In this document: piece by piece, positions 7,885 to 16,184 of the stretch
How the letters are laid out: each line of letters starts with the position of its first letter
How positions within the stretch are numbered: the first letter of the stretch is position 1
Origin: Candidatus Hermodarchaeota archaeon
GTDB taxonomy: Archaea > Asgardarchaeota > Hermodarchaeia > Hermodarchaeales > Hermodarchaeaceae
Direction: 5' to 3'
NCBI GenBank assembly: GCA_016839365.1
Contig: JAEOUH010000028.1
Location: forward strand, 1-36,618
DNA: 36,618 nucleotides
Position numbers and translations under genes: made by a program
Notes under the pieces: generated by a model
The model's database searches: none
What the model was told of the DNA's origin: nothing
Seen by the model: the letters and a program-made list of their open reading frames with translations, nothing else

Positions 7885-8388
7885 TCAGAGTCCTGTGACA
7901 TTCATGGGTAGATGGACCCAAAGGCCCCGGCCTAATGGCTCGCGGATCCAAACAATCTCGTTCGCTGTTGGGTCATAGCGCCATAATTCAAAGGTCAAGC
8001 GATAATTGATTCCCGGAGTAGTCATATTAAGGGTTACTGGGAAACGCCAGGTTCCGCCATTGGGGACAAGTCTTTCGAATTGCTGAAGGGTGGGCGCAGA
8101 GGAGGGAGTGGTGGCGGTGGTCATGGTGGTCTCGTTGGCGAGTTTCATGCGCACATATAGGTACTGGACGACACCCATATAGTTGGACACTTCAATATTC
8201 AGGGTAATATTGGTGTTCACAGTGACATTGGTAGGGTAGGGTCCTGCTTGCATATCTTCATTGAGCATGGCAATTGAGGGAGTGGGTTCAGCAGGGGGCA
8301 GAAACCATACCGACACCAAGAGTGAGCCAGTGGCTAAGACAATGCCAAACATGATGATGGTGAGGATTGTTTGAGTGAATTTTCTCAT
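7885..8388 (-). CDS. DUF1616-like protein, C-terminal extracellular (Ig-like) module with one N-terminal TM
   Basis: YPTNVTV...ITLNIEVSNYMG.VQY.YVRMKL, W.FPVTL, YRLTFELW.YD, WVHL.MNVT; several NxS/T sequons. Confidence 0.7.
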   Translation of the reverse strand: MRKFTQTILTIIMFGIVLATGSLLVSVWFLPPAEPTPSIAMLNEDMQAGPYPTNVTVNTNITLNIEVSNYMGVVQYLYVRMKLANETTMTTATTPSSAPTLQQFERLVPNGGTWRFPVTLNMTTPGINYRLTFELWRYDPTANEIVWIREPLGRGLWVHLPMNVTGL

Positions 8389-8972: not shown

Positions 8973-9635
8973 ATGATGACCGCGGATGGACTCTTCATGC
9001 TGCTTCGTGAAAAAGACACCTATGTTCCCGAAACCGTTAGAGAACTAATCCTCGAAGCGCTTCGCAGTCGCCGTTTTTCCACCGTCCAGGAAGTTGTGGC
9101 GGACCTGAAAACCAAAGGGGTGCCAGAAGAGGTAACAACCCGCATGATTAAGGACCTTGCTCAAGAAGGGCAACTGCTTTTGAACTTGCCTGGCGCTTCT
9201 GATGGAACCGTGATGACACCTGTAGCAAACCTTTGGGCCTATTTGCGCAGTACGCTGGCGTTGGATCTGTGGGTCACTTTACTTTTATTGGTGCTTGGGG
9301 TCGCAACGGTCTTTTTCATCCCTGTGGAGATGTTTCCTGCAGTGGTGTTGCGGTGGATATTTGGAGGGTTACTGCTGGTTTTTGTGCCCGGATTTGGATT
9401 TATTCGTGCTCTGTTCCCCTTTGAACGCTTTATTGACCGCTGGGAAAGGCTTGCGCTCTCGTGTGGCTTAAGCATTGCTTTGGCGGTGTTGGTGGCTTTT
9501 GGCTTGAATTTTACTCCATTTGGGATTACCCTTGTTCCCACGACCATTGTGCTTGCTGTGATTACCGTGCTGAGTATTTTGATTGCCACCGTCCGGCGGG
9601 CACGTGTTCTCATCGCTTCCAGTCCCAGTGAATAA
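8973..9635 (+). CDS. DUF1616-like membrane module with short soluble (possibly wHTH-like) N-terminal domain
   Basis: RWIFG...VFVPGF..IRALFP...ID.WERLALS.GLSIAL...GLNFTPFGI is the DUF1616 membrane signature. Confidence 0.8.
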   Translation: MMTADGLFMLLREKDTYVPETVRELILEALRSRRFSTVQEVVADLKTKGVPEEVTTRMIKDLAQEGQLLLNLPGASDGTVMTPVANLWAYLRSTLALDLWVTLLLLVLGVATVFFIPVEMFPAVVLRWIFGGLLLVFVPGFGFIRALFPFERFIDRWERLALSCGLSIALAVLVAFGLNFTPFGITLVPTTIVLAVITVLSILIATVRRARVLIASSPSE

Positions 9636-9644
9636 ACTGAGCCT

Positions 9645-10706
9645 TTAGAGAGCTTTGAGGTTCTTGACAAGACAATCGGGAGGACATGCACCCTTTTTGA
9701 TACGATAGTGTGGACATATGACTGAGCCTGGAGGGATAACTGCGCCGGTGTCAAGAATGGCCCCGTCACCAATGATGGTGTACTTGTCTAGTGTTAACGC
9801 TTTCCCGATGATGGCACCATGACCAACGATTGACTGGTGAATGGTTACCTCTGCGCCAATGATGGCATCATCGAATATGACCGCGTTGGAGATCTTTGTA
9901 TTGTTGCCTATAGTGACGTGGTTGCCAATAGTGACATCGGAGGCAATCTGAGCTGAAGAGGCGATTTTCGTGTCTTCTCCGATCTGTGGCGTTTTTCCGA
10001 TTTTTCCACGCAGGGCATGGTGGGCTTCAAGGAAGGAGGCGGGGGTACCAGTGTCAACCCAGATTCCGTGGTGTTCCCAACCGTAGACGGGAGCGGATTG
10101 GCAAAGTTGAGGGAATACGTCGTATTCGATTGACACTTCTTGATCAGGGGGAATCTGTTCCAGGATGGTGGAATCGAGTACATAACAGCCCGCGTTGATA
10201 AGATTACTGGGGGCTTGACGGGGAGGTGGTTTTTCAACAAATTGGTGTATTTGTCCATTGGTGGTGATATCAACGACTCCATAACGACTAGGATCTTCGA
10301 CACGATACAAGGCAATCGTGGCCACGGCTTGGTGTTCTTGGTGATATTGGAGCATATGATTATATGCCATATCCGAGACAATATCACCGTTTAAAACGAG
10401 AAACCGTTCAACGTCTTGTAAGTAGGGTTCAGCGTGTTTTATCGCCCCCGCGGTTCCCAGGGGTTGGGGTTCAACAGAAAAGTGCAAGGTCACCTCGGAG
10501 TTGGCGCTATTCTCAAGCCCGCTTCGGAGTTGCTCAGTATTATAGCCGGTTGCTAGGATAACCTCATTGATTCCTGATTTGGTGAGTTGACTGATGATGT
10601 ACCCGATGAGTGTGGATTCGGCAAGGGGGAGGAGTTGTTTGGGGCGCGTACACGTTAGGGAGCGGAGGCGTGTACCAAATCCGCCGGCAAGGATGAGGGC
10701 TTTCAT
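9645..10706 (-). CDS. NDP-sugar pyrophosphorylase (mannose-1-phosphate guanylyltransferase-like) with C-terminal hexapeptide beta-helix
   Basis: MKALILAGGFGTRLR.LT..RPKQLLP, EPQPLGTAGAIK, LNGDI, VEDPSRYGVV, FVEKP, INAG.Y, SIE.DVFP, W.DTGTP. The pattern resembles GDP-mannose pyrophosphorylases; substrate not proven. Confidence 0.9.
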   Translation of the reverse strand: MKALILAGGFGTRLRSLTCTRPKQLLPLAESTLIGYIISQLTKSGINEVILATGYNTEQLRSGLENSANSEVTLHFSVEPQPLGTAGAIKHAEPYLQDVERFLVLNGDIVSDMAYNHMLQYHQEHQAVATIALYRVEDPSRYGVVDITTNGQIHQFVEKPPPRQAPSNLINAGCYVLDSTILEQIPPDQEVSIEYDVFPQLCQSAPVYGWEHHGIWVDTGTPASFLEAHHALRGKIGKTPQIGEDTKIASSAQIASDVTIGNHVTIGNNTKISNAVIFDDAIIGAEVTIHQSIVGHGAIIGKALTLDKYTIIGDGAILDTGAVIPPGSVICPHYRIKKGACPPDCLVKNLKAL

Positions 10707-10863
10707 TGGTTTTCTTCCGAGATTTGTTTTGGATTGTGAGCCATAAGTATTTATGTGGTTGGTGATTCATCTGTTCTAAGGATTGGGCTGCCTGTGGGTA
10801 AGACTTAAGAATAAAGCCTTATCAAGGCAGTCGCATATTCCCTATCATAAGGGGTAACCGATT

Positions 10864-11202
10864 ATGGCACGAGATAAAATCTATGGTTTCCTCATTCTCC
10901 TCTTCGCGATTCTAGTTCTACTTTATTACACCTATTGGGCATTAATCTATCCTTTCATGTTCTACACAGTCTATCCATCCTTCACGGGAGCATTTCCTGA
11001 TCTTTCTGGTCATCCGTGGTATCCATTCTTCGGCTGGATTCCAGTTCTGGCGGAGCCCTATTGGGCTGTGGCAATTCCGATATGGCTGGCGATTGTGCTT
11101 GTACTCTTCATTGTGGCTTGGATTGGTTGGACCATGCTTACGACTCCACCCCCGATTCCCCTTGAAGAAATTGAGGAAGAAGAGGAAGCAAAAGAAGAGT
11201 AA
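10864..11202 (+). CDS. Small two-TM protein resembling PIG-P and DPM2
   Basis: DKIYGF...YYTYWALIYPF ... PYWAVAIP ... GWTMLTTPPP, acidic tail; GGGGT SD-like motif upstream. Family resemblance from recalled eukaryotic sequences. Confidence 0.7.
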   Translation: MARDKIYGFLILLFAILVLLYYTYWALIYPFMFYTVYPSFTGAFPDLSGHPWYPFFGWIPVLAEPYWAVAIPIWLAIVLVLFIVAWIGWTMLTTPPPIPLEEIEEEEEAKEE

Positions 11203-15750: not shown

Positions 15751-15981
15751 TCACTCTCGGCGACGAATGTAGTAGATGCCGAAGATGAGAATGCTGAGGA
15801 AAAATGCTAGATGTGCGAGGGCATAACCAATGATGATTGGTAATATGAAAGCTGGTCCAAGAAAGATGAGGGCAAGGACCATAAGGGAATTTGATAAGAT
15901 GAATCCTGCAAAGAGGATGAGAATGATCCACATTTCTTTTGAGAGCCGTTGTGATGACTGTTTGTGCTCATTCATCTGCAT
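15751..15981 (-). CDS. Small two-TM hypothetical protein (~76 aa)
   Basis: C-terminal part of track ORF 15751..16158; ATG at 15981 behind AGGTG; two hydrophobic helices and RRRE tail. Confidence 0.55.
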   Translation of the reverse strand: MQMNEHKQSSQRLSKEMWIILILFAGFILSNSLMVLALIFLGPAFILPIIIGYALAHLAFFLSILIFGIYYIRRRE

Positions 15982-16016
15982 GACACCTGTTACGCTTTCT
16001 CCTGAAGGCTTCGATG

Positions 16017-16184
16017 CTAGCCATTTAGTAGTTTTGGTATGAGTTTGGGTTTTAGATATTTTGTGCAAAGCATGGCAGTGATTGCCATTAACAAGGTCAG
16101 AATTGCAAATGCAATAACTAAAGCTGAACGAAATATGAAGTATCGGGTAGTACCCCATTTCGTGAACAACCCTTCCTCAACCAT
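16017..16184 (-). CDS. Single-TM micro-protein (55 aa), not in ORF track
   Basis: Manual translation MVEEGLFTKWGTTRYFIFRSALVIAFAILTLLMAITAMLCTKYLKPKLIPKLLNG*, GTGAGG SD-like motif upstream, one TM flanked by basic residues. Confidence 0.5.
   Translation of the reverse strand: MVEEGLFTKWGTTRYFIFRSALVIAFAILTLLMAITAMLCTKYLKPKLIPKLLNG

Follow-up and report, generated by a model that had tools for sequence, protein, structure and literature searches.

A Hermodarchaeial member of a core archaeal family of transmembrane hairpins related to DPM2 and PIG-P, and its possible role beside a polyprenyl-phosphate hexose synthase

The window analyzed here, a stretch of 36,618 nucleotides of Hermodarchaeial DNA, carries a 112-codon open reading frame (ORF; ATG to TAA, 10864-11202, forward strand) for a small two-transmembrane (TM) hairpin protein that is almost certainly homologous to the eukaryotic proteins DPM2 and PIG-P. 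The protein is the Hermodarchaeial ortholog of a core, mostly single-copy gene of Asgard archaea and Thermoproteota. As to its function, the reading that we favor, tentatively, is that it serves as the membrane partner of a polyprenyl-phosphate hexose synthase whose catalytic subunit has no TM helix of its own.

Homology, distribution and predicted fold of the hairpin

Against the Pfam models, the protein scored 33.4 bits with DPM2 (PF07297; gathering score 27.3; E = 5.4e-8), the top-scoring stretch of its 112 amino acids (aa) being residues 4 to 32, and a lower 22.1 bits with PIG-P (PF08510; cut-off 39.3; E = 1.5e-4) over residues 5 to 108, a match that is significant but sub-threshold. A sequence-only reading of the same DNA had described a 112-aa two-TM protein with the motifs DKIYGF, YYTYWALIYPF, PYWAVAIP and TMLTTPPP and had likened it to both eukaryotic proteins. 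The ORF and all four motifs are present (Table 1), TMLTTPPP occupying residues 90 to 97 and being followed by the acidic EEIEEEEEAKEE tail, and the proposed likeness was borne out by significant matches to both profiles, above the cut-off for DPM2 and below it for PIG-P. All homologs begin with MxKDK, so the start codon of the ORF is correct.

Seventy-four close homologs with up to 99% identity were retrieved, the closest of them labeled Hermodarchaeia or Hermodarchaeota, and an exhaustive search gave 203 representative clusters at E ≤ 1e-3; among the matches listed (150 of 203), those inspected were all of archaeal type. Word-indexed searches likewise gave archaeal proteins only. The family pattern runs MxKDKxxG, TM1, WAxAIP, TM2, AWIGWTMxTTPPPxPxEE and an acidic tail. 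Every one of these elements is found in the protein of the window, and the signature is kept across its homologs, with five residues (G8, W86, G88, T94 and P95) invariant in an alignment of 31 sequences. On the evidence of the 74 homologs, the 203 clusters, the invariant residues and a DPM2 score above the gathering score, the hairpin is a real protein and more than a chance frame. The sequence-only reading had also remarked that the C-terminal part resembles a widespread uncharacterized archaeal family; that family exists and belongs to the same superfamily, since its members, scanned singly, matched PIG-P in 60 of 101 cases (best E = 2e-10) and DPM2 in 44 of 101 (best E = 2e-8). The family has no Pfam model of its own, close homologs already carry precomputed Pfam labels, and an ESM-Atlas cluster from Thorarchaeota was auto-named DPM2. 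A search for longer forms of the family returned fusions to HhH/DUF4332 domains only and none with a glycosyltransferase; in these metagenomic proteins of 280-315 aa (P0117, P0271-P0277) the hairpin is fused C-terminally to a helix-hairpin-helix / DUF4332 domain.

The gene was found in 133 of the 151 Asgard genomes searched (73 of the 78 high-quality ones), nearly always as one copy, and is as common in Thermoproteota (183 of the 201 genomes searched). Relatives that carry the signature motif are encoded in at least 410 species genomes, and the best 80 loci come from Asgard lineages, Bathyarchaeia, Nitrososphaerota and Methanomethylicota. Within its own genome, a 2.2-Mb assembly of 93 contigs that is 84% complete, a six-frame search showed the hairpin gene to be single-copy (33.3 bits with DPM2 for the frame). 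The genes that surround it in the window (an L12/L10/L1/L11/Spt5 cluster, NIP7, an RsmB-type methyltransferase and HypC) show the host to be an archaeon. Elsewhere in the window, ORFs at 7885-8388 (−) and 8973-9635 (+) match different halves of Pfam DUF1616 (positions 152-292 and 3-120), with a 179-aa ORF of no family sitting between them, and a 135-aa ORF without a Pfam match (15751-16158, −) separates the L11 gene from that for Spt5/NusG in the conserved ribosomal cluster.

An AlphaFold2 model built on the 31-sequence alignment is confident (mean pLDDT 88.1) and places helices at residues 3-36, 65-93 and 100-111, as expected of two TM segments that form a hairpin and are followed by a short C-terminal helix; both termini probably lie in the cytoplasm. 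The inter-helix loop, presumably extracellular, has the lowest model confidence (pLDDT 67-77) and varies in length and sequence among family members. Structure searches were uninformative because the fold is so simple: with the hairpin model, Foldseek returned no match in the PDB at E ≤ 0.001, and VIA-align against 48,161 chains returned generic helical hairpins only (Z up to 7.5), the TM hairpin of ArnC being rejected as a structural relative since its Z of 6.1 lies within this noise. Searching the PDB by sequence with a profile of the family likewise gave no match to a solved DPM2, PIG-P or 5mlz; the top match was DHHC20 (E = 0.025).

Table 1. Positions of the hairpin gene and its elements, of neighboring features in the window, and of related genes in other contigs and genomes
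Feature	Position	Strand	Basis or remark
P0001, DPM2/PIG-P-like two-TM hairpin, 112 aa	10864..11202	+	ORF, stop codon included
DKIYGF, N-terminal cytosolic motif (putative side), residues 4-9	10873..10890	+	family consensus KDKxxG; G8 invariant
YYTYWALIYPF, TM helix 1, residues 21-31	10924..10956	+	motif and AlphaFold2 model
Inter-helix loop, aromatic- and proline-rich, residues 37-64	10972..11055	+	alignment and model
TM helix 2, residues 65-93, starting with PYWAVAIP (65-72)	11056..11142	+	motif, alignment and model
Family signature AWIGWTMLTTPPPIPLEE, cytosolic end of TM2 (putative side), residues 85-102	11116..11169	+	W86, G88, T94 and P95 invariant
Acidic C-terminal tail, residues 100-112, modeled as a short helix	11161..11199	+	sequence and model
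NDP-sugar pyrophosphorylase (NTP_transferase and left-handed beta-helix), divergent	9645..10706	−	best NCBIfam match mannose-1-phosphate guanylyltransferase, below curated cut-off
Divergent intergenic spacer, 157 bp, common to the hairpin and pyrophosphorylase genes	10707..10863	.	
Second Heimdall paralog (copy B)	about 2900-3300 in L092, L094, L096, L098, L100, L102		genomes G015, G036, G052, G127, G142, G148
229-aa GT2, best candidate partner	G000:C54:31137-31826		

Gene neighborhoods and a candidate synthase partner

The pairing of the hairpin gene with a divergent GMPP-like pyrophosphorylase gene is kept in the four closest genomes (loci L011-L014), and linkage to genes of the GDP-mannose pathway or to GT2 genes recurs in several lineages. 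In 15 Thor-type loci the hairpin gene has a PGM/PMM gene as its neighbor, and in L003 such a gene is found about 2 kb upstream; three loci of Bathyarchaeia (L080, L089 and L090) have a short NTP-transferase gene directly downstream on the same strand. In a further locus, from Bathyarchaeota (L058:3824-7814), four genes on one strand form an operon-like series: the gene for a hairpin of 109 aa is followed by those for a TM-less GT2 of 247 aa, a GT4 bearing DUF1972 and another GT4. The GT2 is 37% identical to the 229-aa GT2 that the Hermodarchaeial genome encodes on contig C54. Overall, a GDP-mannose-pathway/sugar-activation or GT2 gene was found within 4 kb of the hairpin gene in 28 of 80 loci, against ~2% expected from the gene density of the Hermodarchaeial genome, these 28 loci being related and representing roughly five independent arrangements. 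Such linkage in several lineages points to sugar-lipid synthesis. Across the loci compared, no family-wide operon and no conserved glycosyltransferase operon was found; most neighborhoods of the family are of a housekeeping kind, consisting of ribosomal protein clusters, and the canonical Heimdallarchaeia copy lies by a class II aminoacyl-tRNA synthetase gene.

The Hermodarchaeial genome has only two GT2 genes. Their products, 229 and 232 aa long, belong to the AglJ / dolichyl-phosphate hexose transferase type and have neither a hydrophobic C-terminal domain nor a membrane segment. The 229-aa protein aligns to residues 24-234 of the 374-residue Dol-P-Man synthase of P. furiosus (E = 2.5e-18) and, given the extent of this alignment, lacks the four-TM domain of the Pyrococcus enzyme. 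TM-less GT2 orthologs of 225-260 aa occur widely in Asgard archaea, and TM-less Dpm1 has been traced to a probable TACK/Asgard ancestor (PMC4973528). The gene for the 232-aa GT2 stands beside genes for a short sugar-1-phosphate nucleotidyltransferase and a flippase-like membrane protein (G000:C72:21500-27890; L010), which is a compact lipid-linked-sugar module, and in another contig three PGM/PMM-family genes lie side by side, adjoining another NTP-transferase gene (G000:C7:3844-10213).

Were the hairpin the partner of such a GT2, the two would make up a polyprenyl(dolichyl)-phosphate hexose synthase in which a TM-less catalytic subunit is assisted by an accessory subunit embedded in the membrane, and such a complex would be the archaeal equivalent of the "type II" Dol-P-Man synthase of eukaryotes. 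The task of the hairpin would be to keep the soluble GT2 at the membrane, or else to present or stabilize the lipid-phosphate acceptor, and two hairpins might dimerize into a four-helix bundle that resembles the membrane domain of the Pyrococcus synthase. The conserved AWIGWT-TTPPP-acidic segment, on what would be the cytosolic face, is a candidate docking site for the GT2. Should this hold, TACK and Asgard archaea would rely on a Dol-P-hexose synthase of several subunits, comparable to that of humans.

Several observations count against a synthase partnership. The hairpin gene is not adjacent to either GT2 gene, all of them lying on different contigs of the genome; its family sits mostly in housekeeping neighborhoods, and the only fusions found are to HhH/DUF4332 domains; and the family is more widespread than the close orthologs of the candidate GT2. 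In mammals, moreover, DPM1 is tethered by DPM3 and not by DPM2, and no DPM3 homolog was found in the 84%-complete genome; the sole DPM3 match (E = 0.14) was rejected, since its frame is not that of the 577-aa ORF within which it falls. Co-occurrence in the 151 Asgard genomes was uninformative: the criterion for a C54-type GT2 is loose, and genomes without the hairpin often have such a GT2. Prediction of a complex between the hairpin and the 229-aa GT2 returned "no answer" (score 0.00), which counts neither way.

Alternative roles for the hairpin

It is a serious possibility that this hairpin of the DPM2/PIG-P superfamily has a housekeeping role in the membrane that is independent of any GT2, such as binding or flipping dolichyl-phosphate(-sugar), aiding the oligosaccharyltransferase AglB, or scaffolding another complex via its acidic tail. 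Such a role would sit well with a mostly single-copy family that is near-universal in Asgard archaea and Thermoproteota, two large archaeal groups, and often encoded beside ribosomal-protein or tRNA-synthetase genes, that shares no family-wide operon with a glycosyltransferase, and whose fusions include none to enzymes. It would also be in keeping with a 2026 article (PMC12992685) that proposes a possible flippase role for the DPM2-like membrane domain of the Pyrococcus synthase, with the product of the enzyme as its cargo. Set against this are the recurrent linkage to GDP-mannose-pathway and GT2 genes in several lineages and the fact that both eukaryotic relatives, DPM2 and PIG-P, are glycosyltransferase subunits.

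The sequence-only reading had linked the protein to the GPI-N-acetylglucosaminyltransferase (GPI-GnT). In that case it would be a PIG-P-like subunit of a GPI-GnT-like enzyme, aiding a PIG-A-type GT4 in the transfer of GlcNAc onto an inositol phospholipid, with PIG-L-type de-acetylation to follow, and we regard this as very unlikely. The significant sub-threshold match to PIG-P spans nearly the whole hairpin (residues 5-108), two GT4 genes lie within 7 kb of it, and the genome encodes two PIG-L-family deacetylases and two CDP-alcohol phosphatidyltransferases. However, the two neighbors are ordinary GT4s without the PIG-A-specific domain and are kept in the closest relatives only, the score of the protein with DPM2 exceeds that with PIG-P, and searches of the 84%-complete genome found neither the PIG-A-specific domain (PF08288) nor PIG-C, PIG-Q or PIG-H (PF06432, PF05024, PF10181). 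Of the 151 Asgard genomes, just 8 have the PIG-A domain, none of them in the family to which this genome belongs, as against 133 with the hairpin; because the domain occurs in so few genomes, a near-universal hairpin cannot depend on a PIG-A-type partner, and the link to GPI-GnT was not supported.

That the likeness to DPM2 and PIG-P is a generic similarity of hydrophobic hairpins with no true homology is scarcely credible: although the proteins are short and mostly transmembrane, match unrelated TM families weakly (Phage_holin_3_6 in 48 of 101 members, for example) and yield only generic hairpins in structure searches, the DPM2 score exceeds its curated cut-off, both profiles match family-wide at the best E values given above, the matches span both helices in the same order, and a phylogeny published independently was built on this very family (PMC12872463).

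Evolutionary origin and comparison with known systems

Kay et al. (Nature 2025; PMC12872463) derived DPM2 and PIGP from a pre-LECA duplication of a gene of archaeal origin; in the PF07297 tree of the supplement to that work, the Asgard sequences form the sister group, and one duplication gives two LECA clades, DPM2 and PIGP. A single Asgard gene that precedes the DPM2/PIG-P duplication is thus already published. The proposal that the gene in this window represents the pre-duplication ancestor agrees with the published tree and, since that tree already shows it, is not new; what does not stand is its identification with the ancestor, as the gene is a living ortholog and not the ancestor itself. 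An archaeal pre-duplication homolog is another component of the ER inherited from the archaeal host, a point that is likewise already in print, and to which the protein of this window adds nothing beyond its many orthologs.

In the Asgard sample, all six Heimdallarchaeia-type genomes have two copies of the hairpin. Copy A is canonical and scores higher with DPM2. Copy B (Table 1) follows the pattern RTLKG...FETY...QYWGL.FPS...AWVGYTM.T.EP.R.TYEEAYE and, where it scores at all, scores higher with PIG-P, always below the cut-off; its homologs are labeled Heimdallarchaeota or Kariarchaeaceae. In an archaea-only tree, copy B forms its own well-supported clade (100/98) that groups, weakly (59/75), with the Heimdall A copies, a position that suggests that the A/B duplication occurred inside Heimdallarchaeia. 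In two genomes copy B lies directly upstream of a gene for a PlsC-type acyltransferase on the same strand, and in three others it converges on a gene for a UbiA-family prenyltransferase of 520-540 aa. Because its scores fall below the Pfam cut-offs, copy B is probably missing from the published PF07297 tree. A wider scenario, in our view unlikely, would give TACK and Asgard archaea an ancestral Dol-P-hexose synthase encoded by two genes, with paired hairpins as its four-helix membrane domain; this enzyme would be the source of DPM1, DPM2 and DPM3 as well as of PIG-P, and the DPM2/PIG-P split would perhaps not be purely eukaryotic.

In eukaryotes, DPM2 and PIG-P are parts of the machinery in the ER that serves N-glycosylation, O-mannosylation and GPI anchors. 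DPM2, of ~84 aa, is the regulatory subunit of the type-II dolichol-phosphate-mannose synthase, whose activity it enhances in a complex with DPM3 and the TM-less GT2 DPM1, and also an enhancer of the GPI-GlcNAc transferase, and PIG-P/Gpi19 is an essential small subunit of GPI-GnT. Like the archaeal protein, DPM2 is a small two-TM hairpin, and the two share the order of their motifs, namely D/K-x-x-G at the N terminus, YYT-W in helix 1 and AVAIP at the start of helix 2; the genome of the archaeal hairpin, too, encodes a catalytic GT2 without a TM helix. The archaeal protein differs from DPM2 in that its outer loop is longer and rich in aromatic residues, in that helix 2 is followed by the family-specific AWIGWTMxTTPPPxPxEE motif and an acidic tail, and in that no DPM3 partner is detectable in its genome. 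With PIG-P/Gpi19, likewise a two-TM hairpin, it shares motifs like IYGF and YWAVA(I/L)P and, beyond helix 2, a T-x-P segment, whereas its score falls short of the Pfam cut-off (22.1 against 39.3) and the PIG-A domain, PIG-C, PIG-Q and PIG-H were not found in its 84%-complete genome. In the type-III Dol-P-Man synthase of P. furiosus (PDB 5mlz), two tandem TM hairpins are attached to the GT2 catalytic domain, whereas the archaeal hairpin described here is encoded by a separate gene. Searched against the sequences of the PDB, the family profile missed 5mlz, and the link between the hairpin and this structure rests on the published resemblance in sequence of TMH1 and TMH3 of the Pyrococcus enzyme to human DPM2 (PMC5526996). 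It is the catalytic part of this same enzyme to which the 229-aa GT2 of the Hermodarchaeial genome aligns.
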